Source: Candidatus Zapsychrus exili
GTDB lineage: Bacteria > Omnitrophota > Gorgyraeia > Zapsychrales > Zapsychraceae
Reading direction: 5' to 3'
Length of the DNA stretch: 39,698 nt
Assembly: GCA_030765585.1 (NCBI GenBank)
Contig: JAVCCJ010000014.1
Location: forward strand, 1-39,698
This document shows, piece by piece, positions 8,537 to 37,131 of the stretch. The notes beneath the pieces are model-generated. The model did no database searches. It saw only the letters and a program-made list of their open reading frames with translations, and was not told where the DNA came from. The translations under genes and the position numbers were made by a program. The stretch's first letter is position 1. Each line of letters starts with the position of its first letter.

Positions 8537-10201
8537 TTACTTATGATGTTCTTTTTCCCAGCGAAGCTTTCCGATAACACTTTGCGCTACATTCTTTAGC
8601 CTATCACCAATCTTCTCTAAGTTATCTATCAGATCCACAAAAATAAATCCTGAAGAAATACTACAAGACTTTTCGTTAAGTCTTAATATATGAGCTTCTT
8701 TATATTTATTATGTAAATCATTGATGTGCTGTTCTCTCTTTAACATTTTCTTAGCCATCGCTATGTCATTGTTGCTTAAAGCCTCAGTTGCTTCATCTCC
8801 CATGGCTTGTACTTCTTTCCATAATGTTTTAATTTCTTCAATGGCCTTATCGCTAAAGCTAAGATTTTCATCTATTTTTTTTCTTATACATTCTGCTAGA
8901 TTTTGTGAATGATCTCCGATTCTTTCGATATCATTTACATTATGAATTAAAACAGGCAATTCTTCTGACTCTTCAGGCATAAGTGTTTCCTGAGATAGCT
9001 CAATTAAATATTGCGTAATTTCAGATTGCAGATTATCTGTTACGTCTTCTAGTTCAGAAACTCCATCTATTTCTTTAATATCATTATTTATCAAACTGTT
9101 TAAAGCGCTGTCAGTAGCTTTTTTTGCAATACTTAGCATATATACCGTTTCCTTGTAAACTTGTTCAAGAGCAAGCCCTGGAGTGCTTAGAAGATGTTTC
9201 TCTAGATACTGTGTTCCAAAATCAATAGCATCATCTTTTTTTGGAACAAGCCAAATGCTGGCTCTTTCTAATAAACTTATAAAAGGCATAAATACAACTG
9301 TGTTTAGCACATTGAAAAAACTATGTGCAACAGCTATATAAAACATAATATTTATTGTGGTTATTTCTCCAGGTATTATAAAATTTACAAATTTTCCGAA
9401 GAATCCAAAATAAACTAATGCAAGAGCATAACCTGCACCTATAACATTAAATAAAGTATGCGACATAGCAGCTCTTCTTGCATTAAGATTAGCTCCAACA
9501 GCAGCAAGCTGAGCTGTAATAGTTGTACCAATGTTGCCGCCTATAATAAGTGGTATTGCAGCGTCAAAACCGATGATACCTTTAAAAGCTAACACCTGAA
9601 CTATTGCTATTGTTGCAGATGAGCTTTGTAAAAGAAAAGTAAATATCATTCCAGCTAAACAGCCTAGGAGGGGATTGTTACTGAATTGAACAAATATCTG
9701 ATGGATCATTTCGCTGTCCTTTACAGGACCAAATGCATCTTTCATAAAATGAAGTCCAATAAAAAGAACACCAAAACCTAATATTACTTGTCCCCAAGAT
9801 TTGTTCTTTTTAGTTTTAGCAAGGCTCATAATTGCAAATCCTATACCGACAGCAGGCATAGCATAAGAAGTTATTTTTAATACTGACATCGACGATACTA
9901 GCCATGCAGTGAATGTTGTTCCTATGTTAGCGCCCATAATAACAGCAATAGATTGTTTTAATGTAAGCATGCCAGCATTTACAAAACCTACGACCATGAC
10001 GGTTGTAGCACTGGATGACTGTACAAGACAAGTAACAGAAGCCCCCACTAAAACTCCGATAATTGGAAGTTTTGTGGCATTATGTAAAAATCCTTTTAAT
10101 TTATCTCCTGCTACCTTGTTTAATCCATCTGATAAAGTTTTCATTCCGAAGAAGAAAAATCCAAGACCACCTATTATTAGAAACAACATGCTTTCTTCCA
10201 C
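8537..10201 (-). CDS. Na+/Pi cotransporter family protein with PhoU-like C-terminal domains (copy 2)
   Basis: Two QSSSAT repeats, GANIGTT/GGNIGTT, DIERIGDH, NLEKIGD; GTG start with GGAG RBS. Confidence 0.92.
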   Translation of the reverse strand: MEESMLFLIIGGLGFFFFGMKTLSDGLNKVAGDKLKGFLHNATKLPIIGVLVGASVTCLVQSSSATTVMVVGFVNAGMLTLKQSIAVIMGANIGTTFTAWLVSSMSVLKITSYAMPAVGIGFAIMSLAKTKKNKSWGQVILGFGVLFIGLHFMKDAFGPVKDSEMIHQIFVQFSNNPLLGCLAGMIFTFLLQSSSATIAIVQVLAFKGIIGFDAAIPLIIGGNIGTTITAQLAAVGANLNARRAAMSHTLFNVIGAGYALALVYFGFFGKFVNFIIPGEITTINIMFYIAVAHSFFNVLNTVVFMPFISLLERASIWLVPKKDDAIDFGTQYLEKHLLSTPGLALEQVYKETVYMLSIAKKATDSALNSLINNDIKEIDGVSELEDVTDNLQSEITQYLIELSQETLMPEESEELPVLIHNVNDIERIGDHSQNLAECIRKKIDENLSFSDKAIEEIKTLWKEVQAMGDEATEALSNNDIAMAKKMLKREQHINDLHNKYKEAHILRLNEKSCSISSGFIFVDLIDNLEKIGDRLKNVAQSVIGKLRWEKEHHK

Positions 10202-10264
10202 TCTTTACTCCTTATATAAAATTGAATTTAAATATATAGTTATTGATATTTACAGTCTTAAAAT

Positions 10265-11938
10265 TTAAAGGGCGTTTTTTTGCTTATCAGCGTCCCACTT
10301 CATTTTGCCGATAACACTTTGCGCTATATTTGTCAGCCTATCCCCTATTTTTTCTAAATTATCAACAATCTCTACAAAAATGAATCCTGAATTGAGATTA
10401 CAAATTCCTTCGTGGAGTCTCGTAATATGAGACTGCTTGTATTTGTCGTGCAGATTATTTATATGTTCTTCTCGCTTTAACATGTTTTTGGCCACTGCTA
10501 TATTATTATTGCTTAATGCCTCAGTTGCTTCATCGCCCATATCTTGAATTTCTTTCCATAATATTTGAATTTCTTCAACTGCTTTGTCAGTAAAAATTAG
10601 GTTTTCCTCTATCTTTCTTCTTGCGAGTTCTGCTAAGTTTTGAGAATAGTCACCAATTCTTTCAATATCATTTACGTTATGAATTAACACTGGAAATTCT
10701 TCAGACTCTTCAGGAAGAAGAGTTCTTTGAGATAATTCAATTAAATATTGAGTAATTTCAGATTGCAGACTATCTGTGGCAGCTTCTAGTTCAGCTACTT
10801 TATCTAATTTCTTAAAATTGTTCTCCATTAAACCATCCGAAGCATTATTGACAGCTTTTTTCGCAATGTTTAACATATATACTGTTTCATTATAGACTTG
10901 TTCAAAGGCAAGGCTTGGAGTATTAAGCAAATGTTTTTCTAAATATTGTGTTCCGGAATCAACAGCATCTCCTTTTTGTGGAACAAGCCAGATACTAGTT
11001 TTTTCTATAAAATCAATAAAAGGTAAAAATATTGCAGTATTCAAAAGTTTAATAGCTGTATGAGATATAGCTATATAAAACATAATATTTATTGTTGTAA
11101 TCTCTCCAGGAATTGCTATATCAATAAACTTATTAACCCAACCTAGATAAACAAAAGCTAGCATATAAAGGGCTCCCGCCACATTAAATATGGTGTGCGA
11201 CATGGCCGCTCGTCTAGCATTAACATTTGTTCCTATTGCTGCTAACTGAGCTGTAATAGTGGTTCCAATGTTGTCTCCTAGGATTAGTGGAATAGCTGCA
11301 TTTAAATCAAGCACGCCATTAAATGCAAGAACCTGAATTATGGCAATCGTAGCACTTGAGCTTTGAAGTAGGAGAGTAAAAATAAGTCCAGCTAGTACGC
11401 CAAGAATTGGATTATTGCTAAAAGACATGAAGACTTGTTTTATGATTTCGCTTTCTTTTAAAGGATTAAAAGCGTCTTTCATAAAATGTAATCCAATAAA
11501 AAGTAATCCAAATCCAAGTAGTATTTGTCCCCAATGCTTTGTTTTTCTTGACTTAGCTAAAGTCATCACTGCAAAGCCAATTCCTACAGAAGGTAGAGCA
11601 TACGCTGTTATGTTAAAAACCGACATTGATGATACAAGCCATGCAGTTATAGTTGTGCCTATATTGGCACCCATAATAACTGAAATAGCTTGTCTTAATG
11701 ATAATAGTCCTGCGTTAACAAATCCAACAACCATTACAGTTGTTGCGCTTGATGATTGCACAAGACAGGTGACAAATGCTCCGACGCAAACTCCAATAAT
11801 AGGAAGCTTTGTTACATTATGTAAAAAATTCTTTAACTTTTCGCCAGCAATCTTTTTAAGGCCTTCTCCCATGGTTTTCATACCAAAGAAAAAGAATCCC
11901 AGACCCCCAACCAGCAAAAATACTAAATTGTCACTCAT
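10265..11938 (-). CDS. Na+/Pi cotransporter family protein with PhoU-like C-terminal domains (copy 1)
   Basis: Same motifs; colinear paralog of 8537-10201. Confidence 0.92.
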   Translation of the reverse strand: MSDNLVFLLVGGLGFFFFGMKTMGEGLKKIAGEKLKNFLHNVTKLPIIGVCVGAFVTCLVQSSSATTVMVVGFVNAGLLSLRQAISVIMGANIGTTITAWLVSSMSVFNITAYALPSVGIGFAVMTLAKSRKTKHWGQILLGFGLLFIGLHFMKDAFNPLKESEIIKQVFMSFSNNPILGVLAGLIFTLLLQSSSATIAIIQVLAFNGVLDLNAAIPLILGDNIGTTITAQLAAIGTNVNARRAAMSHTIFNVAGALYMLAFVYLGWVNKFIDIAIPGEITTINIMFYIAISHTAIKLLNTAIFLPFIDFIEKTSIWLVPQKGDAVDSGTQYLEKHLLNTPSLAFEQVYNETVYMLNIAKKAVNNASDGLMENNFKKLDKVAELEAATDSLQSEITQYLIELSQRTLLPEESEEFPVLIHNVNDIERIGDYSQNLAELARRKIEENLIFTDKAVEEIQILWKEIQDMGDEATEALSNNNIAVAKNMLKREEHINNLHDKYKQSHITRLHEGICNLNSGFIFVEIVDNLEKIGDRLTNIAQSVIGKMKWDADKQKNAL

Positions 11939-12974: not shown

Positions 12975-14039
12975 CTATTTAATAGTTTTTTGAATCATAA
13001 GAGCATCAAGTAGAACTAAAGCTATCATAGATTCAACAACTGAAACAACTCTCGGACAAATACAAGGGTCATGGCGTCCTCGCACTTCAATATTCACGTC
13101 ATCTTCCTCGGCAGATACTGTTTGTTGATTTTGCGCAATGGATGAGGTTGGTTTTATGGCAACACGTAATACGATGTCTTCTCCGGTTGAAATGCCACCC
13201 AGAATTCCTCCAGCATTGTTCGTTGTTACACGCACACGATCTCCATCCATATAAAATCTATCATTATGTTCTGAGCCAAGCATCGTAGAGGATTTAAAAC
13301 CAGATCCAAACTCTATACCTTTTGTTGCAGGTATAGACATAATACCGCCTGCTAATTTTGCTGTCAATTTTTCAAAAACAGGATCACCTAATCCTGCAGG
13401 CGTTCCATGAACAATTGCTTCTATGACCCCACCTACAGAATCATTATTTGCTTTTGCTTCTTCTATTTTTTGTAGCATATCATCAACAACGCTTAAATCT
13501 GCAGTACGGATAGGGTTTTTCTCGATTACAGAATAGTCTATCTTTTTGGCCACCACATCTGATATAGAAAGCGTATATGCAACTATATTTATGCTATGTT
13601 CGCTTAGTATTTTTTTAGCAACAGCTCCTGCTGCAACTCTTGCAACTGTTTCTCTACCAGAAGATCTTCCACCACCCCTATAGTCTCTTGTTCCATATTT
13701 TTTAAAATATGTATAATCAGCATGACCTGGACGAAAGACATCTTTTATATTTGAATAATCCTCTGATTTAGTATCATCATTGCGTATTAAAAGTGTAAGT
13801 GGTGCACCCGTGGTTTTACCTTTAAACATACCAGACAATATTTCAACGCTATCTTTCTCTTTTCTTTGAGTTGTTATATTGTTTTGCCCAGGACGCCTTT
13901 TATCTAATTCACTTTGTATATCATTAATTGTTAATCCTATGCCTGGCAATACGCCATCTATTACAACCCCTAGGGCAGGTCCGTGACTCTCTCCAAATGT
14001 TGTTATTTTAAATATTTTTCCAAATGAATTTCCAGACAT
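12975..14039 (-). CDS. aroC: Chorismate synthase
   Basis: TTFGESHG, RPGHAD, GGGRSSGRET, GGILGGIS, RGRHDPC. Confidence 0.97.
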   Translation of the reverse strand: MSGNSFGKIFKITTFGESHGPALGVVIDGVLPGIGLTINDIQSELDKRRPGQNNITTQRKEKDSVEILSGMFKGKTTGAPLTLLIRNDDTKSEDYSNIKDVFRPGHADYTYFKKYGTRDYRGGGRSSGRETVARVAAGAVAKKILSEHSINIVAYTLSISDVVAKKIDYSVIEKNPIRTADLSVVDDMLQKIEEAKANNDSVGGVIEAIVHGTPAGLGDPVFEKLTAKLAGGIMSIPATKGIEFGSGFKSSTMLGSEHNDRFYMDGDRVRVTTNNAGGILGGISTGEDIVLRVAIKPTSSIAQNQQTVSAEEDDVNIEVRGRHDPCICPRVVSVVESMIALVLLDALMIQKTIK

Positions 14040-14040
14040 T

Positions 14041-14655
14041 TTAAGCTAACCACCTTTTTTCTTGTTTTAATTTATTTTCGTAATCTTTAATTTTATCTTC
14101 AAACTGAAGAGTCCATCCAATTTGATCTAAACCTTTTAATAAACAATCTTTTGCAAAAGGATTTATATCAAATTTGTAGTTTTTACCATTAGGACCTACT
14201 ACTGTCTGACTTCTTAAATCAACTGATATTTGAAATCCCGACACTCCCTTGTCTTGCTTAAAAAGTTCATCAATATCTTCGCTGCTTAAGCTAACTAGTA
14301 GAAGACCATTCTTTATACTATTATTATAGAAGATATCTGCAAAACTGGGAGCAATAATTACACGAATTCCATAATCAGTTAAAGCCCAAGGAGCATGCTC
14401 TCTTGAAGATCCGCAACCAAAGTTATCTCTAGCTAAAAGGATTGTAGCTCCCCTGTAACCACCTTTGTTTAAAATAAAATCAGAATTTTCCTGTGTTCCT
14501 TCATAGTCTGTATATCTCCACTCATGAAATAAATGTTTTCCAAACCCTGTACGCTCAATTTTACGCAAAAATTGTTTTGGAATAATAGCATCAGTATCTA
14601 TGTTTGACCTGTCCAGCGGAGCAACTAAACCAGTATGTTCAGTAAAATGTCTCAT
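14041..14655 (-). CDS. leuD: 3-isopropylmalate dehydratase small subunit
   Basis: [37 protein letters not shown]. Confidence 0.97.
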
Positions 14656-14660
14656 AATAA

Positions 14661-15090
14661 GACTAACGACAAAAGACTAACGACTAATGACCTTTTTGTA
14701 TCTCTTTGCTAACAGCATTTATTAGGCCATATAATGTTTTTGCCGCATCCTTTCTTGTTTCTTCGAGTTCATTATATTTTAAATCAGATAAATAATTTAG
14801 TTTTAAAGATAAACTTAAAAGATATTCCGTTTCCGATAAAGACCCTCTTGCAATATATAAGAAATTTAAATAATCTTTCTTGTGTTGCCTGCTTGCGCCT
14901 TCAGCTATATTGGAAGGTACTGAAACAGAAGCTCTTTTTAGTTGAGATGTTAATCCATAAATTTCTTCTTTAGGAAAAGTTTTAACAACTTTGTATATTT
15001 TAATGACTAGTTTATCAGATAATTCATAAGCTTTTATATTTTTAAAATTTCGCATTTCAGTCTTTAGTCATCGGTCTTTGGTCTTCTGTC
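14661..15090 (-). mobile_element. Putative four-helix-bundle cassette with inverted GAC-heptamer arms, inserted between leuC and leuD
   Basis: Arms 14661-14692 (GACTAAC GACAAAA GACTAAC GACTAAT GACC) and 15056-15090 (TTCAGTC TTTAGTC ATCGGTC TTTGGTC TTCTGTC); mobility is inferred. Confidence 0.6.
14684..15055 (-). CDS. Four helix bundle protein (23S rRNA IVS protein / bAvd-like family)
   Basis: FPKEEIYGLTSQLKRASVSVPSNIAEG...FLYIARGSLSE signature. Confidence 0.92.
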   Translation of the reverse strand: MRNFKNIKAYELSDKLVIKIYKVVKTFPKEEIYGLTSQLKRASVSVPSNIAEGASRQHKKDYLNFLYIARGSLSETEYLLSLSLKLNYLSDLKYNELEETRKDAAKTLYGLINAVSKEIQKGH

Positions 15091-16490
15091 TAATTACAGA
15101 TGTACTTACGTACGTCTGTAATTCTGCCTTCAATGGCTGCAGCTGCTGCCATTTCGGGACTTACTAGATGAGTTCTGCTTCCTTGACCTTGTCGACCTTC
15201 AAAATTTCTATTTGATGTTGCAGCACATCTTTGTCCTGCTTTTAACTTGTCATCATTCATAGCTAAACACATCGAACATCCTGCGTAACGCCACTCAAAT
15301 CCTGCATCAATAAATATTTTATCCAAACCTTCTTTTTCTGCTTGACGTTTTACTCTTCCTGAACCAGGAACAACTAAAGCTAATATTCCTGCTTTCACTT
15401 TATTTCCTTTTGCTATTTTTGCTGCTGTGCGTAAATCTTCAATACGACCATTTGTGCAAGATCCAATAAAAACAGCATCTATTTCTATATCTGTTATTTT
15501 TGTGCCAGGCTTTAAGCCCATATATTTTAATGCGTTTTCTGCTGCAGTTTTTCCAACATCATCAAAATCAGATGGATTAGGTACTTGCGCTTCTACAGAA
15601 GTGACTTGTCCAGGAGAAGTTCCCCAAGTAACTTGTGGAACTATGTCTTCCGCTTTTATATTTATTGTTTTATCAAATTGTGCGCCTTCATCTGTTTTAA
15701 ATGTGCTCCAGTATTTAATAGCTTGTTCTCGTTCAGCATCTTTTGGCGCATAATCAAGACCTTTTAAATATTCAAAAGTTTTTTCATCAGGCGCTATCAT
15801 CCCAGATCTTGCCCCAGCTTCTATTGTCATATTACAGACCGTCATTCTTTCTTCCATGCTTAAAGCTCTTATTGCGCTACCGGCATACTCTATGATATAT
15901 CCAGTTGCTCCAGCAGTACCTATTTGGCCAATTATATACAGAATGATATCTTTTGCAGTAACTCCTTTGCCTAAGCTACCGTCTATATTAATCAACATTA
16001 TTTTAGATTTTTTTTGCTGTAGTGTTTGCGTTGCCAAAACATGTTCAACTTCTGATGTACCTATTCCAAATGCTAACGCACCAAAAGCTCCGTGCGTTGC
16101 AGTATGCGAATCCCCACAAACAATAACCATGCCAGGATGGGTTACGCCTAACTCTGGACCAATAATATGCACAACGCCATTATCAGGATCGAGATGATTG
16201 AAAAGCCTTACTCCAAAATCTTTGCAATTTTTAGACAGTGCGTTCATTTGTATCTGCGATGTTTTTTCCATCTTATTAATATCTTTTGTAATTGTTGAAA
16301 CGTTGTGATCCATAGTAGCAAATGTTTTATGTGGAGCGCGCACAGTTCTTTGACTTAATCTTAACCCTTCAAAAGCTTGAGGGCTTGTTACTTCGTGGAC
16401 TAATTGCCTATCGACATATATTATGTCAGTCTCTTCTTTGCTCTCTCTAATAAGATGAGCATCCCAAATTTTATCATACATTGTTTTCAT
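15090..16490 (-). CDS. leuC: 3-isopropylmalate dehydratase large subunit
   Basis: [50 protein letters not shown]. Confidence 0.97.
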
Positions 16491-16528
16491 TTTTGTACCT
16501 TTACTTTAAGTAGCTGCCACTGCCACTT

Positions 16529-16557
16529 AATGTATAGCAATCATTAGAACTTGTCAA
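16529..16557 (-). promoter_or_regulatory. sigma70-type promoter for leuC-leuD-aroC
   Basis: Minus strand TTGACA-N17-TACATT. Confidence 0.55.
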
Positions 16558-16565
16558 TATCAAGC

Positions 16566-19205
16566 TTACGCTAATTTCCTAAGAACAGTTTGCAATATCC
16601 CGCCATTCTTAAAATAATCTATCTCAACAGGAGTATCTAATCGCACTGTCGCTTTAAATTCCTTTATTTTTCCTGATTTGTTTTTAACGCGAACAATAAT
16701 ATCTGTTCCAAGCTTAAGATTATTATCTATACCTAAAAAACTATAGGCTTCATTGCCAGACAATTTAAGAGACTCTGCTGTTTGTCCTCTTTTAAATTGC
16801 AATGGAAGTATCCCCATGCCGGCTAAATTGCTTCTATGAATTCTTTCAAAACTTTCTGCAAGAACAACTCTAACTCCTAACAAAGCAGTTCCTTTTGCAG
16901 CCCAATCTCGACTTGATCCAGTTCCGTATTCGCTACCAGCTAAAACAACTAAAGGCGTACCCGTTTTTTTATATTTTAACGACGCATCGTAAATAGACAT
17001 GACCTTAGATGTGGGAAGATATGTTGTAAATGAGCCTTCCGTGCTTTTTGCCATTTGGTTTTTAAGGCGAATATTCGCAAATGTTCCCCTTGTCATTACT
17101 TGATCATTTCCGCGACGAGAACCGTAGCTATTAAAATCAGAAGGCTTAATGCTGCTAGCTTTAAGAAATTTACCAGCAGGAGAATTTTCAGAAATTACTC
17201 CAGCAGGAGATATATGGTCTGTTGTTATAGAATCCCCAACTTTAATTAAAACACTAGCATCCTTTATATCGTGTATATCGAGCGACCTGCCTTTCATACC
17301 TTTAAAAAATGGTGGTTCTTGGATATAGGTGCTTTTATTATTCCACTTGAATAAATCTGACTTAGAAGTTTTTATTTTATTCCAATCCTTATTTTTTTTA
17401 TCAACATTTTTATAAACTTTATTAAAAGCGGTTGAAGTAATAAATTTGTCACACACTTGTTTTATCTTAGAATCTTTTGGCCAGATATCTTTAAGATATA
17501 TATTACGACCGCTTTTATCTTGACCAAGAGGGTCTTTATCGAAATCTATCATCGTGCTTCCCGCAAGAGCATATGCAACAACTAACGGTGGTGATGCTAG
17601 ATAATTTGCTTTTGTATGTGGGCTTATTCTTCCCTCAAAGTTTCTATTTCCGCTTAAAACACTTGCCACAGTTAGATTATTTTTCCTTATTGCCTTAACT
17701 ACCTTTTCATCTAAAGGTCCGCTATTTCCAATACATGTCGCACAGCCATAGCCTACAATATGAAATTTAAGTTGCTCTAAATATTTAAGCAGATTTGCCT
17801 TCTTTAAGTATTCTTCAATTACTAATGATCCTGGAGCAAAGCTTGTTTTGACGAAATCCTTCACCTTCAAACCTTTAAGAGCTGCGTTTTTTGCAATGAG
17901 ACCTGCCGCAACAACTAGAGAAGGGTTAGATGTATTAGTACAACTCGTTATCGACGCAATAACAATTGATCCATCTTGTAATTTATTTTTATCCTCTACT
18001 ATCTTTTTGTTACCGATTAATTTTTTAAATTCTGCTTTCATATCCTTAAGTACAATTCTGTCTTGAGGACGTTTTGGTCCAGCTAATGAGGCTTCGACTT
18101 TTGACAAATCAAGTTCTAAGGAATCGCTGTATTTAGGAGCACTTGTTTTATCGTCATAGAACATACCTTGTTCTTTAGTATATTTTTCTATTAGCCTTAC
18201 ATCGTTTGCTTTTCGTCCAGTCATTTTGTAGTAATTTAATGTTTCTTGATCGATAGGAAAAATGCCTAAAGTAGCACCATATTCTGGGCACATATTAGAA
18301 ATTACTGCACGGTCAGGTAAGCTCAAATGTTTGATTCCTTGTCCAAAGAATTCTACAAACTTTCCAACAACTCCTTTTTTACGCAATTTCTCAACTATTG
18401 TTAGAACAAGATCTGTCGCGGTGACGCCCTCTTTTAATTTACCTTTTAATTTGAAACCAACAACTTGCGGGAGAATCATATATATAGGTTCGCCTAGCAT
18501 TACAGCTTCTGCTTCAATTCCGCCTACACCCCAACCAACAATACCAATACCATTTATCATTGTCGTATGACTATCTGTTCCGACCAAACTATCTGGATAC
18601 ACAACAGTATCTTTGCCACTCTTTTTCCGAAAGACACCTTTTGCTAAATACTCTAAATTTATTTGATGAATTATTCCTGTTGATGGAGGAATTACTTTAA
18701 AATTCTTAAATGCACTTTCTCCCCATTTAAGAAATTGATAGCGTTCTTTATTTCTTTTAAACTCTAGCGCAACATTCTTACGAGCAGCATCCTTATCTCC
18801 GTAATAATCTATTTGAAGAGAATGATCTATAATTAAATCACAAGGAACTTGAGGATTTATTTTTTTATAATTCCCACCAAGTGCTTTCATCCCATCTCGC
18901 ATTGCAGCTAAATCAACTATACAAGGTACGCCTGTAAAATCTTGCAGCAGAACCCTAGATGGCTTAAAAGCTATTTCTTTTGATTTTTGCTTAGGTTTCC
19001 AGTTTAGGATATTTTTTATATCACTAAATGTTACTTGATGGCCATCAAAATTTCTAATAGCAGATTCTAAGAGAATCTTTATGGAGAATGGCAACTTAGA
19101 AGAATCTCCTATTCCTAGCTTTTTAAGCTTGTTTAAGCTAAAGATAGTATACTTCTTTGAATCTAATGTTAATGTTTTCTTAGTAGTCTCTTTGTTGAAT
19201 TGCAC
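16566..19205 (-). CDS. acnA: Aconitate hydratase A
   Basis: RVLLQDFTGVP, GTDSHTTM, ITSCTNTSNP, GYGCATCIGNSG, TTDHISPAG, GSSRDWAAKG. Confidence 0.97.
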   Translation of the reverse strand: MQFNKETTKKTLTLDSKKYTIFSLNKLKKLGIGDSSKLPFSIKILLESAIRNFDGHQVTFSDIKNILNWKPKQKSKEIAFKPSRVLLQDFTGVPCIVDLAAMRDGMKALGGNYKKINPQVPCDLIIDHSLQIDYYGDKDAARKNVALEFKRNKERYQFLKWGESAFKNFKVIPPSTGIIHQINLEYLAKGVFRKKSGKDTVVYPDSLVGTDSHTTMINGIGIVGWGVGGIEAEAVMLGEPIYMILPQVVGFKLKGKLKEGVTATDLVLTIVEKLRKKGVVGKFVEFFGQGIKHLSLPDRAVISNMCPEYGATLGIFPIDQETLNYYKMTGRKANDVRLIEKYTKEQGMFYDDKTSAPKYSDSLELDLSKVEASLAGPKRPQDRIVLKDMKAEFKKLIGNKKIVEDKNKLQDGSIVIASITSCTNTSNPSLVVAAGLIAKNAALKGLKVKDFVKTSFAPGSLVIEEYLKKANLLKYLEQLKFHIVGYGCATCIGNSGPLDEKVVKAIRKNNLTVASVLSGNRNFEGRISPHTKANYLASPPLVVAYALAGSTMIDFDKDPLGQDKSGRNIYLKDIWPKDSKIKQVCDKFITSTAFNKVYKNVDKKNKDWNKIKTSKSDLFKWNNKSTYIQEPPFFKGMKGRSLDIHDIKDASVLIKVGDSITTDHISPAGVISENSPAGKFLKASSIKPSDFNSYGSRRGNDQVMTRGTFANIRLKNQMAKSTEGSFTTYLPTSKVMSIYDASLKYKKTGTPLVVLAGSEYGTGSSRDWAAKGTALLGVRVVLAESFERIHRSNLAGMGILPLQFKRGQTAESLKLSGNEAYSFLGIDNNLKLGTDIIVRVKNKSGKIKEFKATVRLDTPVEIDYFKNGGILQTVLRKLA

Positions 19206-19261
19206 AGGTATATACCACTTTCTATTTAATATTTATACTTTTATTATATCTTAGTGGAGTT

Positions 19262-19290
19262 ATTATATTAGAAGAGGGCTTTAGAGTCAA
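19262..19290 (-). promoter_or_regulatory. sigma70-type promoter for acnA
   Basis: Minus strand TTGACT-N17-TATAAT. Confidence 0.65.
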
Positions 19291-19349
19291 CCACTAACCC
19301 CACAGTTATTGCGAATTCTACCAATCTTTAATTTAATATAAAAATATGC

Positions 19350-19378
19350 TTGAAATAGAGTTTCCTTAAGTTTAGTAT
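19350..19378 (+). promoter_or_regulatory. sigma70-type promoter for the radical SAM gene
   Basis: TTGAAA-N17-TAGTAT. Confidence 0.45.
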
Positions 19379-19413
19379 GTGAATAAAACAATTACTGGGA
19401 AGTTATATAATAT

Positions 19414-20856
19414 ATGAAAGTAGCATTCTTCAATCCATCTTTTGGTCAAAATTTTGTTAGAGTTGCGCGCTGGTCAGCTAAATCACGTGGACGAGTACAA
19501 AGACATCCAGAGTACCTTCTAACAGCTGCTAAGATTTTAATAGGACAAGGTCATAAAGTCACATTTCTAGAGGCTGCTGCGCGAAACTTTACTCCCGAAG
19601 AATCTTATAAAATTTTAGAAAATTTTGCTCCTGAACTGCTTATAATTCATGCAACAACGCCTTCTATATATGATGATATTAAACAAGCAAGAGCTGTAAA
19701 GAAGCTCACTAACTGTAAAGTAGCTTTTGTTGGTCAGCATGTAACAGCAGAGGTTGATGATACTTTTAATATATCAAAAGGTGTTGTGGATTATATTTTA
19801 AGAGGTGAATATGATTATACTGCTCGAGATATAGCAAATGGAATTAATATAGAGAATATCGGTGGATTATCTTTTGTTCGCGATGGTAACACTATAAATA
19901 ACCCAGACAGACCACCATTGGATGTTAATGAGCTTCCTTTCCCTGCTTGGAATTTAATCAAGCCAGAATGGTATCCTGATGCAGGAAAAAAATCCCCATT
20001 CTTAACTCTTGTGACTGGACGTGGATGTAATAATGCGTGTAGTTTTTGTCGCGACCCGCAACTTATGTATGGACATAGTTTACGTTTAAGAGATCCGATA
20101 AAGGTTGTTGATGAAATAGAATATGATCTTAAGTTATACCCTAAAATTCGTGAAATAATGTTTGAAACAGATACATTTGCGGCAAATACAAACCATGCCT
20201 TTGATATATGCAATGAGATTATAAAAAGAGGTCTTAATAAAAAAATTACGTATTCTTGCAATATGCGCGTTGATACAGATCTTCATATTTTACCTATAAT
20301 GAAACGCGCAGGTTTTAGGATGCTGATGGTGGGTTTTGAGTTTGGTTATAATGAAGGACTAAAAGCTGTTAACAAGGGACGAGTTAATATAGAAATGTCC
20401 AGAATTTTTGCTGAAACAGCTCATAAATTTGGATTCACAACGCATGGTTGTTTTATGATTGGTGCACCGAAAGAAACCAGAGAAACAGCGCAAAAAACAA
20501 TAGATTTTGCTAAATCACTACCGCTAGATACAATACAAATAACTGGTATTGCTGTTTATCCAGGAACAAAAATGTACGATTGGGCTCGTAAAGAGAACTA
20601 TTTAATAGCTAAAGATTGGCGCGATTGGCTTACGATAGAACGAGAACAAAAAACTCTCCTCTCCTTTCCCCAACTTTCTAACAAAGAAATTGATGAGTTT
20701 ATAGACAAAGGCTTAAAAGAATTTTATTTAAGACCTCGACAAATGATAAATATGCTATTTTCTATAGATTCTTGGGGAGATTTCTTAAGGAAGATTTACG
20801 GATTGAAGGCTTTTGTGCATTATTTTCTTAAAAAAATCATAACAAAGAAACAATAA
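19414..20856 (+). CDS. Cobalamin-binding-domain radical SAM protein (HpnJ/BchE-like)
   Basis: N-terminal B12-binding region (VGQHVT, RGEYDYT); GRGCNNACSFC; GCFMIGAP; YPGT. Confidence 0.85.
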   Translation: MKVAFFNPSFGQNFVRVARWSAKSRGRVQRHPEYLLTAAKILIGQGHKVTFLEAAARNFTPEESYKILENFAPELLIIHATTPSIYDDIKQARAVKKLTNCKVAFVGQHVTAEVDDTFNISKGVVDYILRGEYDYTARDIANGINIENIGGLSFVRDGNTINNPDRPPLDVNELPFPAWNLIKPEWYPDAGKKSPFLTLVTGRGCNNACSFCRDPQLMYGHSLRLRDPIKVVDEIEYDLKLYPKIREIMFETDTFAANTNHAFDICNEIIKRGLNKKITYSCNMRVDTDLHILPIMKRAGFRMLMVGFEFGYNEGLKAVNKGRVNIEMSRIFAETAHKFGFTTHGCFMIGAPKETRETAQKTIDFAKSLPLDTIQITGIAVYPGTKMYDWARKENYLIAKDWRDWLTIEREQKTLLSFPQLSNKEIDEFIDKGLKEFYLRPRQMINMLFSIDSWGDFLRKIYGLKAFVHYFLKKIITKKQ

Positions 20857-20860
20857 TACA

Positions 20861-21043
20861 TTACAAATCTTTAAAAATATCCTCTGTTACCTCGACAGGC
20901 TTAAAATCTTTTTTCTCGATAAACGTTTTTCCAAGATTTAATCCTAATAATACCAAAATAATCGGTATAAGTATAAAAAATACTATAACCCATGCTTTTG
21001 GTTTCTTAGTTCTTGGATCATAAAATATAGACATGATTACCAC
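20861..21043 (-). CDS. Small single-pass membrane protein
   Basis: 60-aa ORF with one hydrophobic segment, 5 bp downstream of the previous gene; true start may be the internal ATG. Confidence 0.55.
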   Translation of the reverse strand: MVIMSIFYDPRTKKPKAWVIVFFILIPIILVLLGLNLGKTFIEKKDFKPVEVTEDIFKDL

Positions 21044-21048
21044 CTATC

Positions 21049-21618
21049 TTACTTGTTGTTTGATCCCATCGTTAAAGTTACAACAACGGCCTTTTGTTTC
21101 CAGAAATAAAAAGCTATATCGTAATATTTATTTTCATCCCAGCAAAATTCAATTCCTTCAGGAATATCATTTTTATACATTTTTGGTTCAGACATAACAA
21201 GACCTACATATCCTCGATTACTCAATTCCCCTTTTAAACTTTCTGCACAAGTTTTGCAAAGATCATTAAAAGCCTCCTCGATAACTTCATCGGCGTCTTC
21301 CTTAATCCCCTGAAATCCAAAGTTTTTAAGAGCTTTTTCCACAGAAAACTCTTCAATAAATACTATAATAGCACCTAAAGAGTTCTGTTGTTTCTTAGCC
21401 TCTTCTGACTCGTAGTAATTAATTAAAGACAATTTGCAGGGTTCGTTAAATTTCTCAAGCCCAAACACACGCATCCTGCTATTATATTCTATAAGCTCAT
21501 GCTCAGAAAATTCTGATGTTTGAGAAAATTCAGTACCAGACATTTTTTCAATAGTTGCCTGGATAGGACCTTCTAATATTTCTTTAGCTGCTTCATATCC
21601 AAATGGTTTTCTCGCCAC
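21049..21618 (-). CDS. Hypothetical protein, possibly CheX/CheC-like fold
   Basis: GTG start with AGGAG RBS; EEAFNDLCKTCAESLKGEL...MSEP loosely resembles CheX helix/S-P motif. Confidence 0.55.
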   Translation of the reverse strand: MARKPFGYEAAKEILEGPIQATIEKMSGTEFSQTSEFSEHELIEYNSRMRVFGLEKFNEPCKLSLINYYESEEAKKQQNSLGAIIVFIEEFSVEKALKNFGFQGIKEDADEVIEEAFNDLCKTCAESLKGELSNRGYVGLVMSEPKMYKNDIPEGIEFCWDENKYYDIAFYFWKQKAVVVTLTMGSNNK

Positions 21619-21707
21619 GATAACTCCTAAACTTTATTTTTAATAAAATATTTTCCTAATAAAAGTTTACATTTCAAAATACTAAGAATCAAGGGTTTTG
21701 TAATTAA

Positions 21708-22466
21708 TTATAATCTTATCCCTACCGGACAATGATCTGATCCAAAAACATTTTTTAATATAAATGCATTTTTTAAACTATTTCTTAAATTTTCTGTTAT
21801 AAAGAAATAATCTATACGCCAGCCAACATCTCTTTTCCTTGCTCCTGTCTTATAATCCCACCAACTATAGTGACCATCTTGACTTTCAAAAACTCTAAAT
21901 GTATCTATGTATCCTTTATTGATAAACTTTGTCATCCACGCTCTTTCTTCTGGCAGAAATCCTGTATTATTTTTATTTGCGACAGGGCGAGCTAAATCAA
22001 TTTCAGTGTGAGCTGTATTTACGTCTCCACAAACAATAACCTTCCTACCTTCTTTTCTGAAAGATTCACATTTTTTCAAAAAAGCATCATAAAATTTCAT
22101 CTTAAAAGGAACTCTTTTTTTCTCTCTGCCGCCATTAGGAAAATAAATATTAAATAAAACAAATTTACCATAATCTAGAATAAGGGTCCGACCTTCTGTG
22201 TCGAATTTCTTAACGTCTAAATATTCACTAACATTAACAGGAGTCTTTTTTGTAAATACACTTACTCCGCTATACCCTTTCTTTTCTGCAGAAGACCAAT
22301 AAGTTTTGTATCCTAAAGGATTTAGCAATTCATTACTGAGTTGATCAGGACTAGCCTTAGTCTCTTGTATACATAATATGTCAGGAGATTCCTGTTGCAG
22401 CCATTCTAAGAATCCTTTTTTAGATATAGCTCTAATTCCATTTACATTCCAGCTAAGTATTTTCAT
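21708..22466 (-). CDS. xth: Exodeoxyribonuclease III / AP endonuclease
   Basis: SWNVNGIRA, LCIQETK, GYSGV, CGDVNTAH, GWRIDYF, GSDHCP. Confidence 0.95.
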   Translation of the reverse strand: MKILSWNVNGIRAISKKGFLEWLQQESPDILCIQETKASPDQLSNELLNPLGYKTYWSSAEKKGYSGVSVFTKKTPVNVSEYLDVKKFDTEGRTLILDYGKFVLFNIYFPNGGREKKRVPFKMKFYDAFLKKCESFRKEGRKVIVCGDVNTAHTEIDLARPVANKNNTGFLPEERAWMTKFINKGYIDTFRVFESQDGHYSWWDYKTGARKRDVGWRIDYFFITENLRNSLKNAFILKNVFGSDHCPVGIRL

Positions 22467-22834
22467 GAAGCATTAAGCAAAGAGTTTATATTTTCTATTA
22501 GCTCATCCCATTCGAAAGGTTTAAACATATATTTATCAGCTCCTTTTACCCTACCTGCAATTTTATCTACCTCAGTATTTCTTGCAGTAAGCATTAAGAT
22601 TTTAGTGTTCCAATCGGAATCATCTTTTCTTATTCTTCTGCAAATCTCCTCACCAGTTATTTTTGGAAGCCCTAAATCTAAGATAATCAGATCAGGATTA
22701 ATTTCTTTATATTTCTGATAACCTTCTTCTCCATCAGATGCGCAAGAAATTATATGGCCTTCGCTTTCAAGTTTATATTTAAGTGTTTCTAGCATATCTT
22801 CTTCATCTTCTACAATTAGAATCTTTTTGCTCAT
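22463..22834 (-). CDS. Single-domain response regulator (receiver)
   Basis: ILIVEDE, DLIILDLGLP, MLTA, KPF; overlaps xth start by 4 bp. Confidence 0.9.
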   Translation of the reverse strand: MSKKILIVEDEEDMLETLKYKLESEGHIISCASDGEEGYQKYKEINPDLIILDLGLPKITGEEICRRIRKDDSDWNTKILMLTARNTEVDKIAGRVKGADKYMFKPFEWDELIENINSLLNAS

Positions 22835-22913
22835 AATTAGCCTCTTAGATTATTTATTAAAAACTTATCGATAGTTTGGTGCTAGTTAAAAATAAGCACT
22901 GAAGAACAGGCAT

Positions 22914-23489
22914 CTATTTGACGAGACCTGCAAAACCCATAAAAGCAAGGGATAGTAGACCTGCGGTAAGGAGCGCAACAGGAACCCCTTTCATGCCTTC
23001 TGGAACATCTACCAAATCAAGATGCTCTCTGATTCCTGAGAAAATAATAAGTGCAAGCGCAAACCCAACAGCATTTGCAACAGCAAAAACAACACTTTGA
23101 AGTAAATTGAAATTTTTTTGAATAACTAATATAGCAACGCCCAATATAGCGCAATTAGTTGTAATAAGAGGCAAAAATACGCCTAGAGCCTGATAAAGCG
23201 CAGGACTTACCTTCTTTAAGATGATCTCAACCATCTGAACCAAAGATGCAATGACAAGTATATACGTCACTGTTTGCATAAAACCAATGTTTAGTGGAAT
23301 TAAAATATAATTCTGAATTAAGTATGTAACTATTGTTGCAAGTGTCATTACAAAGACAACAGCAGCGCTCATCCCTATTGCAGTCTCTACCTTACTTGAC
23401 ACGCCCAAGAAAGGACAAATTCCTAAAAATTGTGCCAAGACTATATTATTAACAAATATAGCTGAGGTAACTATTGTAAAATATTCCAT
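22914..23489 (-). CDS. rnfA: Rnf electron transport complex subunit A
   Basis: [31 protein letters not shown]. Confidence 0.93.
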
Positions 23490-23506
23490 ATAATAAATCC
23501 TAGTTG

Positions 23507-24094
23507 TTAGATACTAGATTTGTTTATTTTATTTACGATTGCAATTAGATATGCAAGTGCAATAAAAGCTCCTGGAGCAAGTACAAAAATTAATATTCCA
23601 TCACCTGCAATAAATTTATGGCCAAATATAGCACCACTTCCGAGAATTTCCCTCAACCCACCTAAAATAGTAAGAGCAAATGAAAAGCCTAATCCCATTC
23701 CTACTCCATCTATTATTGATGTTAAGACTGTATTCTTTGATGCAAAAGCCTCTGCACGAGCAAGAACTATGCAATTAACAACTATTAAAGGTATAAATAT
23801 CCCTAATTGCTCATGAAGTGCTTGAAAATACGCAGCCATAACAAGATCAACAATAGTAACAAAAGCTGCGATAATCACAATAAAACAAGGAATACGAACC
23901 TTGTTAGGAATAATATCTTTGACTAGCGATATAACAAGGTTTGCCATAACCAAAACAAATGTTGTCGCAAGACCCATGCCTAACCCATTAATTGCAGAAG
24001 TAGTTACGCCTAAAGTAGGACACATTCCCAATAACAATATAAAAACTGGGTTTTCCCTTAAAAATCCTTTAGTAAAATTTTTCCATTGAGTCAT
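23507..24094 (-). CDS. rnfE: Rnf electron transport complex subunit E (start ATG 24094)
   Basis: [37 protein letters not shown]; the track's extension to 24142 lies in a repeat arm. Confidence 0.93.
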
Positions 24095-24100
24095 AATCGG

Positions 24101-24580
24101 TAAATTCCAAATGTCAAATGTCAAATGACAAATAAATGTCAAAAACCAAATGACTAATTAATTATTTTTTGTGTTGTTAATAATCTTGCTTAATATAAGC
24201 AAGATTTCAGTACTTTCCTTTATTAGAGCATCTATTTCTTTTTCAAAGCTCTTATTTTCAGAAATGACTTTTATTAATTTTAGCCAGTGCCTAGATTCCT
24301 TTGCTTCTCGTCTTGAAATTGCAACCTTATAGACAAAATCTCTTTTTGTTAAAGCTCCATCTGCTTCCTCAAGGTTGGCCCCTATAGACCCACTAGATCT
24401 TACTAATTGCCTCATGTATTCTATAAGTATTATTTCTTTTGGTAACCCCTTAATAAGCTTTGCACAGTTTACTGCAAAAGTGAAGGCTCTGTCATATATA
24501 TCAAATTTCTTTCTTTTTTCTTTCATTTAAAATTTGTCATTTATTGTTTATTTGAATTTTGTTATTTGGCATTTGTCATT
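24101..24580 (-). mobile_element. Putative four-helix-bundle cassette with inverted AATGWCA-heptamer arms between rnfG and rnfE
   Basis: Arm 24107-24157 CCAAATG TCAAATG TCAAATG ACAAATA AATG TCAAAAA CCAAATG; arm 24531-24580 ...ATTTGTC...ATTTGGC ATTTGTC. Confidence 0.6.
24158..24526 (-). CDS. Four helix bundle protein (IVS/bAvd-like family)
   Basis: QLVRSSGSIGANLEEA...SRREAKESRHWL signature. Confidence 0.9.
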   Translation of the reverse strand: MKEKRKKFDIYDRAFTFAVNCAKLIKGLPKEIILIEYMRQLVRSSGSIGANLEEADGALTKRDFVYKVAISRREAKESRHWLKLIKVISENKSFEKEIDALIKESTEILLILSKIINNTKNN

Positions 24581-25137
24581 ATGTATTCGTTGTATGCTCG
24601 TTTTACAGCGTCACAAAATGCTCGCGAACTTATTGTTGCTGCTGTTATGGCGTCAACATCTCCGCCATCTTTTTTAACTTTTAATTTGTAATTAGCAGGA
24701 TTCTTCCCGTTAAATTGCATACTAAAATCAGACTTAGATTTTTGCATCTTATCACCTAAGCCAGGAGTTTCTTTTTGTTCTAAAACAGCTATGTCCTTTA
24801 TTGTCCCATTTGGCAATATACCTACCATAAGCTTAATAGTCCCACCAAATCCAAGATTCGTAAATGTTTCAATTGCGATGCCAACAAGCGTGCTTTCATT
24901 TTTTGCAGGATAAAATATAACCTCGTCTCCGTCCACTTCTTTGATTTCTTTATCATCCAAAGGATTATTGGTAAAATCTGGCACGACTTTTTTAATAGCA
25001 GCTATTTTCTTTTCTAGCGCAGCAGCAGCTATTGGATCTTTTGTAAGTTCATAAACATATCCTAATGAAGCTGATGCGATAAGCGTCACGCCAAAAAGTG
25101 TTAAAACCATATTTAAGAATGTTGATTCTTTTTTCAT
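24562..25137 (-). CDS. rnfG: Rnf electron transport complex subunit G
   Basis: N-terminal TM, GFGGTI, ETPGLG, FMN-attachment DAITAATISS. Confidence 0.92.
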   Translation of the reverse strand: MKKESTFLNMVLTLFGVTLIASASLGYVYELTKDPIAAAALEKKIAAIKKVVPDFTNNPLDDKEIKEVDGDEVIFYPAKNESTLVGIAIETFTNLGFGGTIKLMVGILPNGTIKDIAVLEQKETPGLGDKMQKSKSDFSMQFNGKNPANYKLKVKKDGGDVDAITAATISSRAFCDAVKRAYNEYIMTNAK

Positions 25138-25143
25138 AACATC

Positions 25144-25197
25144 AGGTCTAAGGTTTTAGAGAAAACAAAACCACTTAAACCTTAGACCTTACATCTT
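25144..25197. repeat. ORF-less AAG/CTT-type heptamer hairpin between rnfD and rnfG
   Basis: Perfect 13-bp IR AGGTCTAAGGTTT (25144-25156) / AAACCTTAGACCT (25177-25189); four heptamers ending CTT at 25170-25197. Confidence 0.75.
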
Positions 25198-25200
25198 TCT

Positions 25201-26184
25201 TTATTCGCCGAATCTCTTTGGTTTACAGAATTTATTAATTAATGGAACAAAGGCATTAGCTATTAATATTGCAAACGACACCCCTTCTGGATACGCTCCA
25301 AAAGTACGAATTAAAACTGTCAAAATGCCAATCATAAAAGCAAACACAACCATTCCTTTTTTAGTCATTGGACTTGTTACCATATCTGTTGCCATAAAAA
25401 TAGCACCTAGCATAACACCGCCTGTTAATATGTGGAACAATGGATCTGCGAACTTAGCAGGATTAAAAACCCATAAAATACCAGTAAATGTTGCCACAGT
25501 CGCGACCATAGTAATCGGTATATGCCAAGTTATTATTTTTTTATACAACATAAAAGCAAGTCCTATTAATAGCGCAAGTACTGATATCTCTCCTATGCAT
25601 CCTCCAACTTTTCCTAAAAATAGATCCAAATACGAAGGAACTGATGACATCAAACTCGAGACTGCTTGATTATTGCCAAGACCTTCTTTTACAATTCCTA
25701 GAGGTGTAGCAGCTGTTATTGCATCTAAAGACAACTTATCTTTTAAAGGTACTGGCCAACTTGTCATTGAAACAGGAAATGAAATAAGCAAGAATACGCG
25801 TCCTACTAAAGCTGGATTAAACGGATTGTTTCCTAATCCACCAAATGACATTTTGCCTATACCTATTGCGACAAGCGATCCGATTATGACCATCCACCAT
25901 GGAAGGTTACTAGGAAGATTAAAGGCTAGTAGCATGCCTGTTACAACCGCAGAATAATCGTTGATTGTTGAGCCACTCTTAAGTAAAAACTTTTGTATAA
26001 GATATTCAAACAAAACAGCTGATAATACGGCAAGTACTGTTATTTTTAATGCGCCTACTCCAAAGATATAAATAGATACCCCAAATGCAGGAAGCATTGC
26101 AATAATTACACCAAGCATAATCTTGTTAACTGAGTCTTTTTTAAATATGTGTGGAGATAATGAAATTGTTAATAGTTTGTTCAT
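25201..26184 (-). CDS. rnfD: Rnf electron transport complex subunit D
   Basis: FGGLGNNPFNPALVGR, DAITAATPL, GGCIGEIS, FMATDMVTSP, YPEGVSFAIL. Confidence 0.94.
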   Translation of the reverse strand: MNKLLTISLSPHIFKKDSVNKIMLGVIIAMLPAFGVSIYIFGVGALKITVLAVLSAVLFEYLIQKFLLKSGSTINDYSAVVTGMLLAFNLPSNLPWWMVIIGSLVAIGIGKMSFGGLGNNPFNPALVGRVFLLISFPVSMTSWPVPLKDKLSLDAITAATPLGIVKEGLGNNQAVSSLMSSVPSYLDLFLGKVGGCIGEISVLALLIGLAFMLYKKIITWHIPITMVATVATFTGILWVFNPAKFADPLFHILTGGVMLGAIFMATDMVTSPMTKKGMVVFAFMIGILTVLIRTFGAYPEGVSFAILIANAFVPLINKFCKPKRFGE

Positions 26185-26190
26185 AATAAA

Positions 26191-26650
26191 AAATCCTAAA
26201 TTCTAAACCCTAAATCCTAATAAATTTAAAACATAAAATAAAAAATCATTTTCTAGCTTTAGATACAATTGCTCCAAATATTTTTGTTAATTCAATTGAT
26301 TCTTTGATTAGAAATGCTTTTTCTTTTTCAAATTCTTTCTTTGGTTCGCTTAAGTTTAACCAATATGTGCTTTCTTTTGATTCTTTTTTAGATATTTTTA
26401 TTCTAAATAAAAAATCTTTATTGCTGAATGCTTCTTCTGCTTCAATATAGTTAGCTCCAACTGATCCGGCTGATCTAATTAATTGTAAGCTAAATTCTTT
26501 ATTAGAAATACTATAAGGAAGACTGTTTACATATTCCCTAACTTTTTTTGCAAATTTTAGCGTTCTTTCGCTTAAATCATATTTTTTATTATTTTCTATA
26601 TTAGACATTTAAAATTTATTAGAGTTTAGTGTTTATTGTTTAGTGTTTAT
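26191..26650 (-). mobile_element. Putative four-helix-bundle cassette with inverted TAAA(C/T)NC-heptamer arms between rnfC and rnfD
   Basis: Arm 26191-26230 AAATCCT AAATTCT AAACCCT AAATCCT AATAAATTTAAA; arm 26609-26650 TTAAAATTTATT AGAGTTT AGTGTTT ATTGTTT AGTGTTT. Confidence 0.6.
26246..26608 (-). CDS. Four helix bundle protein (IVS/bAvd-like family)
   Basis: DLSERT...QLIRSAGSVGANYIEA...ISKKESKESTYWL signature. Confidence 0.92.
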   Translation of the reverse strand: MSNIENNKKYDLSERTLKFAKKVREYVNSLPYSISNKEFSLQLIRSAGSVGANYIEAEEAFSNKDFLFRIKISKKESKESTYWLNLSEPKKEFEKEKAFLIKESIELTKIFGAIVSKARK

Positions 26651-26651
26651 T

Positions 26652-28930: not shown

Positions 28931-29043
28931 TGAAATTCTAATATCGAAATTCGAAATAAATTCTAAATATTAAATTCAAGTATTATAAAAAATGTTTAAA
29001 ATTTTTTTATTTGAATTTGTTTAGAGTTTCGTGTTTAGAGTTT
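28931..29043. repeat. ORF-less inverted heptamer-array hairpin between rseC-like gene and rnfB
   Basis: Left AAATTCT AATATCG AAATTCG AAATAAATTCT...; right TTGAATTTGTTTAGAGTTTCGTGTTTAGAGTTT (29011-29043). Confidence 0.85.
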
Positions 29044-29458: not shown

Positions 29459-29597
29459 AAATCCTAAATCTTAAATTCGAAATTCGAATAAAATCCAAGT
29501 TTCAACATCCAAATATTTTAAAATAAATATATTTTTAAATATTTTGTCATTTGAATTTATGATTTGTTTGGTGTTTCGAGTTTCGTGTTTAGAGTTT
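29459..29597. repeat. ORF-less inverted heptamer-array hairpin between flavodoxin and rseC-like gene
   Basis: Left AAATCCT AAATCTT AAATTCG AAATTCG AATAAAATCC; right TTTGTTT GGTGTTT CGAGTTT CGTGTTT AGAGTTT, overlapping the flavodoxin stop. Confidence 0.85.
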
Positions 29598-33430: not shown

Positions 33431-33550
33431 TTCCTATAGATATTGTTTTAGAAGCTTGGGGGACATACTAGCTCTTTCTTTACTTTACTAATAACCGATT
33501 ACTTTCTCTACCACTTTATCACTAGCGAGCTATCAAGCGAGTGGTATTAC

Positions 33551-37111: not shown

Positions 37112-37131
37112 GATAAATTTCCAAATATTCT

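Follow-up and report, generated by a model that had tools for sequence, protein, structure and literature searches.

Described systems closest to the cassette

Pentameric structures have been solved for members of the S23p/IVS family of four-helix-bundle proteins, among them Xcc0516 and BT_0352, and we know of no ligand or function for this family. Nor, to our knowledge, is there an agreed cause for the heptamer repeats that are over-represented in bacterial genomes. Small genes linked to dispersed repeats are familiar from the REP/RAYT systems and REPINs.

In Coxiella burnetii, GACAGAT and GACAGAA heptamers lie just upstream of the S23p ATG within an intervening sequence (IVS) of the 23S rRNA gene (PMC4990558). 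The part of that report dealing with the IVS ends describes a stem of 28 bp in which RNase III cleaves at the first GACAGAT, and 2 to 3 (+1) heptamer copies; these stand on the 5' side alone, vary in number and are not linked there to the protein.

Two oligomeric proteins offer precedents for RNA recognition. Avd, a DGR protein, binds an 11-bp stem-loop via all five protomers at the narrow end of its barrel, and the bases sit in crevices between protomers (bioRxiv 10.1101/2023.10.23.563531). TRAP, for its part, is a ring of 11 subunits that reads 11 triplets (GAG or UAG) with 2 to 3 spacer bases between them (PMC4854314). Among proteins associated with dispersed repeats, Ssn nucleases recognize NTS/SRM repeats sequence specifically as ssDNA (PMC11893778). 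The GGGAATC heptamers of Xanthomonas and Nostoc are intergenic, often occur as inverted pairs (70 cases in Xcc) and combine a fixed core with free positions; they were read as G-quadruplex formers, and the account that describes them also notes a little-studied excess of heptamer repeats in bacterial genomes (PMC4692102). These heptamers differ from the arms described below in that the Xanthomonas arrays peak at four units (range, 2 to 26) and in that no link to a protein is drawn in the portion of PMC4692102 concerned with them. Subscription journals aside, the portions of the literature covered contained no paper in which S23p/IVS proteins are connected with heptamer arms in inverted orientation or with five units per arm.

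A cassette with phased arms between leuC and leuD

The window analyzed, contig JAVCCJ010000014.1 of Candidatus Zapsychrus exili (39,698 nt in all), carries a small ORF enclosed by two heptamer arms at the leuC|leuD junction. The features on the (-) strand are as follows.

15090..16490 (-): leuC, upstream host gene (TIGR00170, 776 bits)
15091..15096 (-): TAATTA at the leuC end, pairing with TTATTA at 14660-14655
15056..15090 (-): 5' arm, five units of 7 nt phased by GAC (run of 5 in the sequence)
14684..15055 (-): cassette ORF, 123 aa, four-helix bundle (TIGR02436 / PF05635, S23p/IVS family)
14661..14691 (-): 3' arm, GTC five times at intervals of 7 nt in the sequence
14041..14655 (-): leuD, downstream host gene (TIGR00171, 288 bits)
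24103..24587 (-): second cassette, in an rnf-type operon, ORF 24158-24526, AATgnCA-type heptamer, strict counts 4/5
26196..26649 (-): third cassette, in an rnf-type operon, ORF 26246-26608, TAAAcnC-type heptamer, strict counts 5/4

On the mRNA (-) strand, the 5' arm consists of the units GACAGAA, GACCAAA, GACCGAT, GACTAAA and GACTGAA (15090-15056); it begins with the G of the TAG that ends leuC, and its far end touches the cassette ATG (15055). The GTC triplets of the 3' arm lie at 14691, 14684, 14677, 14670 and 14663, equivalent to five GAC on the opposite strand. The first of them falls within the final ORF codons, so that this arm overlaps the ORF stop, and only 5 nt (TTATT) separate its end from the leuD ATG. 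An earlier interpretation of this DNA, made from its letters alone (here, the sequence-only reading), had described the 5' arm as five GAC units running from the leuC-stop G to the cassette ATG and the 3' arm as five GTC at 7-nt spacing, with both of which the sequence agrees. The two arms form the longest inverted repeat within positions 14000-16000 (37 nt, 76% complementary), and pairing of TAATTA (15091-15096) with TTATTA (14660-14655) prolongs the stem to the leuD start. Phased runs of at least five GAC occur 6 times in the 2.04-Mb genome, both strands considered, compared with 8e-5 expected from the triplet frequency; the phased arms are thus real and not due to chance.

The triplet had been called invariant and the spacers drifting. 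While the former holds, the spacers proved to be partly constrained, with an A at position 6 in 9/9 complete units of this cassette and a purine at position 5 in 91/93 units of the 5' arms and 88/95 units of the 3' arms across the clade. The GC content is 28% in the cassette ORF, 38% in leuC and 33% in leuD.

The feature belongs to a protein family that is known, and its layout resembles that of an IVS but lies outside rRNA: stem-forming terminal inverted repeats are present, as in rRNA IVSs, and the location is leuC|leuD instead of the inside of a 16S or 23S rRNA gene. It shares with the Coxiella S23p IVS, as far as the latter is described in PMC4990558, the protein family, an ORF within terminal inverted repeats, heptamers by the ATG and a Shine-Dalgarno (SD) sequence that is poor, and differs from it in its position at an operon junction, its imperfect stem and its five units per arm. 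The sequence-only reading had found no evident SD sequence at either start; indeed none is clear, which says little, since SD-like sequences precede just 396 of the 1140 long ORFs of the host genome when scored by a crude test.

The cassette protein resembles pentameric four-helix bundles

The cassette protein scored 120.8 bits with TIGR02436 (cutoff, 24) and 123.8 bits with PF05635 (cutoff, 33.8). Its structure model, built on a 67-row alignment, comprises four helices with a pLDDT of 97 and superimposes on Xcc0516 (PDB 2GSC), BT_0352 (2RLD) and Avd with TM values of 0.91, 0.79 and 0.77, respectively. The first two, both S23p-family four-helix bundles, were also retrieved by phmmer (E values of 4e-21 and 1e-8) and share with the cassette protein the GxxRxxxSxxxNxxE motif given for S23p-family proteins (PMC3936711), which appears here as G34-R41-S45-N49-E52. 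Invariant residues of the protein are E31, Q38, R41, S45, N49, E52, S72 and E75. Both structures have five chains, and Xcc0516 is referred to as a toroidal homopentamer in PMC4990558; judging from these homologues, the cassette protein is probably a homopentamer. The statement that solved Avd and IVS-type structures are homopentameric rings is in line with the five chains of 2GSC and 2RLD and the five protomers of Avd.

With Avd, which is described as pentameric and as a sequence-specific RNA binder, the cassette protein has in common a basic barrel (21 K+R, 14 D+E). It differs from Avd in sequence (10% identity) and in that Avd is reported to read one stem-loop and to work with a reverse transcriptase (bioRxiv 10.1101/2023.10.23.563531; PMC6182149). 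The scores of the cassette protein with Avd profiles were below the cutoffs (26.6 versus 80 bits and 25.3 versus 40 bits), no PF00078 reverse transcriptase match was obtained in the host genome (96% complete), and the neighbors of the cassette are leuC and leuD. Profile searches matched only four-helix-bundle families, with no nuclease or transposase domain, and neither profile nor structure searches gave a family or fold match to TRAP/MtrB. Ssn (GIY-YIG; PMC11893778) and REP/RAYT (HUH) proteins, in contrast, are enzymes. No catalytic fold is known for the cassette protein, and the cassette ends consist of arrays of phased triplets.

The host genome contains four cassette genes for four-helix bundles, three of them within the window. 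A second GAC copy (L002, G000:C39:14952-15385) encodes a 59%-identical paralogue with an in-frame TAG between five GAC and five GTC; by eye, its neighbors resemble lspA and lgt.

Arm runs rarely exceed five units

To count repeats across the family, 273 loci were searched and yielded 249 HMM hits, 210 full-length genes with flanks and, after dereplication at 80%, 167 cassettes. Inverted phased runs with at least three identical triplets per arm at period 7 were found in 93 of the 167, compared with 0/835 shuffles, while the same test at periods 5, 6, 8, 9, 10 and 11 detected 0, 3, 6, 3, 3 and 0 cassettes, respectively. Some of the 74 cassettes that failed the test have other periods, and some are decayed.

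Among the 186 arms of these 93 cassettes, runs continued past three units in 152/186 cases and past four in 94/152, but past five in only 20/94 (then 11/20 and 7/11). The chance of continuation was thus 0.62 to 0.82 before five units, and the drop at five versus four gave a Fisher p of 4e-10, a value that is too strong, as kin are not independent. Counts of 3 to 8 units were shown by 15, 28, 43, 4, 2 and 1 of the 3' arms, respectively. The drop after five persisted when the close clade was set aside (69 cassettes) and among 34 representatives sharing less than 55% identity. The close clade itself comprises 25 relatives with at least 54% identity from several phyla, 23 of which carry at least three GAC on both arms; exactly five units was its mode, with 12/25 for the 5' arms and 15/25 for the 3' arms. 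The sequence-only reading had predicted a mode near five, and the sharp stop after five in the 93 cassettes fits that prediction. Against a count at the cassette ends stand the 74/167 cassettes that failed the both-arms test and the 5' mode outside the close clade, which is four (26 versus 19 at five), although the 3' mode of those 69 cassettes is five. Besides, 5' arms of 8 to 14 units exist in some cassettes. In a distant clade of 14 loci, no arm surpassed five units, and five were reached in 2/28 arms (homopolymer triplets uncounted). As a control, loci of another small flanked gene, GxxExxY (n = 11), had at most three units per arm. These GxxExxY genes (L289-L299) are bracketed by short inverted repeats of 2 to 3 units, often about 9 nt apart.

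Relatives of cassettes with periods other than 7 were fetched to distinguish count from length. In the GTT clade, 17 of 18 loci were counted without dereplication (L317, which is the farthest removed and has a different motif, was excluded; L311 and L312 duplicate two cassettes already in the first set), with pairwise protein identities of 48 to 82%. The units were spaced by 10 nt (101 cases), 9 nt (25) or 11 nt (2). Exactly five units were present in 19/34 arms, which measured 39 to 44 nt compared with 31 nt at period 7, and 5/24 arms went beyond five. Weaker support for a five-unit rule was provided by the period-8 clade, in which 13/15 loci could be read (two were incomplete) and six had both arms at period 8; its strict mode was four, rising to four to five with near-matches. 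Thus, unit number and not arm length is roughly constant across clades, and runs rarely pass five units even with a changed triplet and spacing. Alternatively, arm length rather than unit count may be fixed within each clade.

Triplet and period accompany the protein clade

Motif sharing was analyzed in 65 cassettes with at least four units on both arms. The proportion of pairs with the same motif rose with protein identity from 4% (below 45%) to 14% (45 to 55%), 82% (55 to 65%) and 95% (65 to 80%), and none of the 13 pairs from the same genome, all of distant proteins, shared it. With many motif types in one genome and one motif per protein clade across phyla, triplet and period go with the protein clade rather than the host. 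Motif and protein would be coupled by co-inheritance alone as well, but that would not leave invariant triplets beside drifting spacers.

The proposal of one repeat per subunit is supported by the cap at five, by the retention of the count at a period of 9 to 10 nt and by the coupling of motif and clade, which together suggest one triplet per pentamer subunit. The logic of one triplet per subunit is that of TRAP, with looser spacers, and triplet number and ring size agree at five, the ring size being that of the homologues. TRAP differs, however, in being an unrelated protein of 11 subunits that is ligand gated and, as described in PMC4854314, acts on a single leader RNA site without inverted arms.

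The leuC|leuD junction in relatives

Leucine genes were compared in the best 30 of the 57 genomes in which leuD was matched (the host and 29 others); leuC and leuD are adjacent in 26 relatives; leuD of the nearest relatives in this set is at most 82% identical. The cassette was present at the same junction in 0/26 of these relatives. In 16 of them, no more than 31 nt lie between the two genes; 4 have an ORF-less heptamer hairpin there, 1 has another cassette of the four-helix-bundle type (with a different motif and 36% identity), and 5 carry other inserts. By this comparison, the junction looks like an insertion hot spot, and the cassette is best regarded as an insertion and not as a component of the leucine operon. 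A leucine-specific regulatory role was considered and rejected, as its absence from all 26 relatives makes such a role unlikely. Hairpins that we take to be REP-like, together with an 867-nt insert, are carried by the junctions of three relatives (L086, L094 and L100). In two DNA runs, no joint skipping any of the three window cassettes was detected over positions 13500-27200, contigs being known to drop rare alleles.

A pentamer that may read its own ends

The reading that we favor, and consider rather probable, is that the cassette is a selfish hairpin element and encodes a pentamer that binds the five triplets at each cassette end, one per subunit or crevice. An IVS-like gene cassette would have landed in the leuC|leuD junction, and the homopentameric ring that it encodes would recognize both of its own ends, five triplets making a full site. 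The invariant triplet (here GAC, with a purine favored two bases later) would be read by each subunit or inter-subunit crevice, and the spacers would serve as linkers, the protein clade determining their length (4 nt in this one, 6 to 7 nt in another). Because the element is two-fold symmetric, GAC x5 stands at the 5' end of each DNA strand. Single-stranded DNA, or the hairpin that the two arms form imperfectly, would then be the most economical substrate, more so than the 5' arm of the mRNA alone, and we lean toward these two. The purpose of binding would be to spread or maintain the cassette together with ORF-less five-by-five hairpins, which would belong to it as REP and SRM hairpins belong to the gene they flank.

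Alternatively, the arms might be only an RNA stem, as in rRNA IVSs, with a protein that does not read them and with five as a handy stem length. RNase III would trim the cassette from the transcript, as it cuts the 28-bp Coxiella stem at GACAGAT (PMC4990558), or the stem would set the leuC stop beside the leuD start. Such a stem can form and could make the insertion less harmful to the operon. Pairing of the arms yields -32.2 kcal/mol on the mRNA strand (-27.1 on the other strand), compared with -12.7 +/- 3.3 for an arm with a shuffled partner. Arms also start a median of 2.5 nt from the upstream stop (15 nt or less in 41/56 cases) and end a median of 16 nt before the next ATG, by crude ORF calls, and spacers from different arms resemble each other as closely (0.64) as those from one arm do (0.63), from which it follows that the arms evolve together. 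For a stem, however, complementarity suffices, and a fixed triplet kept across phyla is left unexplained, as is a count that does not change from five when the arms lengthen from 31 to 43 nt. Moreover, the folding z of the entire cassette is just -1.8, and in-register spacer matches in the 37 cassettes with equal arm counts barely exceed those of permuted units (357/540 versus 345.7, p = 0.054). We regard this explanation as unlikely.

Similarly improbable, in our opinion, is that the pentamer wraps the single-stranded 5' arm of the mRNA in the manner of TRAP, with the 3' arm as an antisense sequester, and so controls translation of the cassette ORF and leuD. The five-unit cap and the clade-specific triplets are compatible with it, as are the precedents of TRAP, with 11 triplets on 11 subunits (PMC4854314), and of Avd as an RNA binder (bioRxiv 10.1101/2023.10.23.563531). 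Furthermore, the last GAC lies 10 nt or less from the cassette ATG in 14/25 clade members, and ORFs on both sides are co-oriented in 42/65 cassettes. An argument for RNA had been made from G-U wobbles, three on the mRNA strand versus one on the opposite strand. That count is right for the four inner spacers of the leuC|leuD cassette (4 on the mRNA strand including the last unit), but the argument does not survive in the 37 cassettes, where 47 G-U pairs on the mRNA strand faced 42 on the other (p = 0.67) and no bias was significant; the GTT clade had 19 versus 10. Nor does the 3' arm show the drift from GTC to GTT expected of an arm that merely pairs, with 3 GTT against 120 exact triplets; exact triplets numbered 118 in the 5' arms, and wobble-type variants in adjoining slots numbered 7 (5') and 6 (3'). 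The lack of G-U bias and the equal strictness of both arms point to two equivalent sites on opposite strands or to a hairpin read at its triplet pairs, so that the arms look less like a site and its antisense mask. Control of leuD translation fares no better, considering the 0/26 relatives with the cassette at this junction, the presence of the clade in many unrelated operons and the frequency of SD-less starts in the host. Self-repression alone by the cassette protein is possible. Since the only solved nucleic acid complex of the fold, that of Avd, contains a stem-loop, TRAP-like wrapping remains one candidate geometry among several for the favored cassette-end reading.

Dispersed arrays and hairpins without an ORF

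A total of 122 period-7 runs of at least four units were found in the genome when coding regions were included. Intergenic runs accounted for 89 (59, 26, 3 and 1 with 4, 5, 6 and 7 units, respectively). Of all the runs, 89 lacked a strict inverted partner within 700 nt, and the remainder formed 25 pairs, mostly with short loops and without a gene remnant. ORF-less inverted pairs are dispersed in the genome, with both filled and empty sites, and GAC x5 is present in 22/41 genomes of the family. At a linker site in a repeated domain of giant proteins (…MLEEEY…IIIP…), 23 copies (L383-L387 and contigs C13, C25, C43, C73, C87, C103 and others of the host) could be compared: 7 had 33 nt or less, others were filled in frame by GAC hairpins (6), other heptamer hairpins (5) or REP-like hairpins (2), and 3 were ambiguous, which indicates that different families entered the same site. 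A fixed-size element had been considered on account of a 20-nt gap in 9/22 ORF-less GAC hairpin pairs; it was discarded, as at least 6 of the 9 lie in one homologous protein-domain site, and the gap thus largely reflects shared ancestry.

Against the assignment of the arrays to a cognate gene, GAC x5 arrays are plentiful in four genomes (G021, G004, G033 and G003; 84 to 93% complete) in which no intact GAC-clade gene was found; the gene is intact in G023 and G035 and carries a stop in G020. That a host process or host ring protein makes or keeps the arrays, with four-helix-bundle genes as frequent cargo, would suit these four genomes, the excess of 89 intergenic runs over four cassette genes, and a solo GAC x5 in frame in a 9,937-codon ORF (G000:C24:55853-55883) with no GTC run of three on its 111-kb contig, but it is very unlikely given that one motif per protein clade is kept across phyla despite the many motifs per genome, that the period shifts with the protein clade, and that ORF-less copies outliving their gene are typical of nonautonomous elements.

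Extending the reading of a pentamer that binds its own cassette ends, we tentatively propose, as a possibility that we do not hold as the probable one, a widespread new class of mobile elements in which an Avd-like pentamer ring reads five-triplet ssDNA ends in a clade-specific code (GAC/7, ACA-CAC/8 and GTT/10), while a host or trans-acting enzyme spreads cassettes and ORF-less five-by-five hairpins. The survival of the five-unit cap through changes of triplet and period would link S23p/IVS pentamers to heptamer repeats, and a pentamer reading one repeat per subunit could account for the 7-letter repeats of bacteria. If so, this class would be the source of both the excess of bacterial heptamers and the ORF-bearing intervening sequences of rRNA, and would amount to a natural collection of binders that combine a ring shape with sequence specificity. 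Were one repeat read per subunit, this would make a second example, after TRAP, of counting by a ring, would point to a likely ancestral role of DGR Avd, and would explain how hairpins are inserted between operon genes and within giant-protein genes.

Other features of the window

Period-7 arrays of 4 to 5 units are also found at gene junctions without a four-helix-bundle gene at window positions 25174-25197, 29019-29042, 29460-29483, 29566-29596 and 37264-37294. Another small hairpin cassette, at 33045-33440 (-), consists of a DUF559 nuclease-like ORF between nonperiodic inverted CCTTCTCCC…GGGAGAAGG hairpins. The region 36710-39188 (-) encodes a carbamoyltransferase and, after it, a small ORF that matches PF19588 (SxtJ-like) weakly, and two Na+/Pi cotransporter-PhoU paralogues lie in tandem at 8537-11938 (-).
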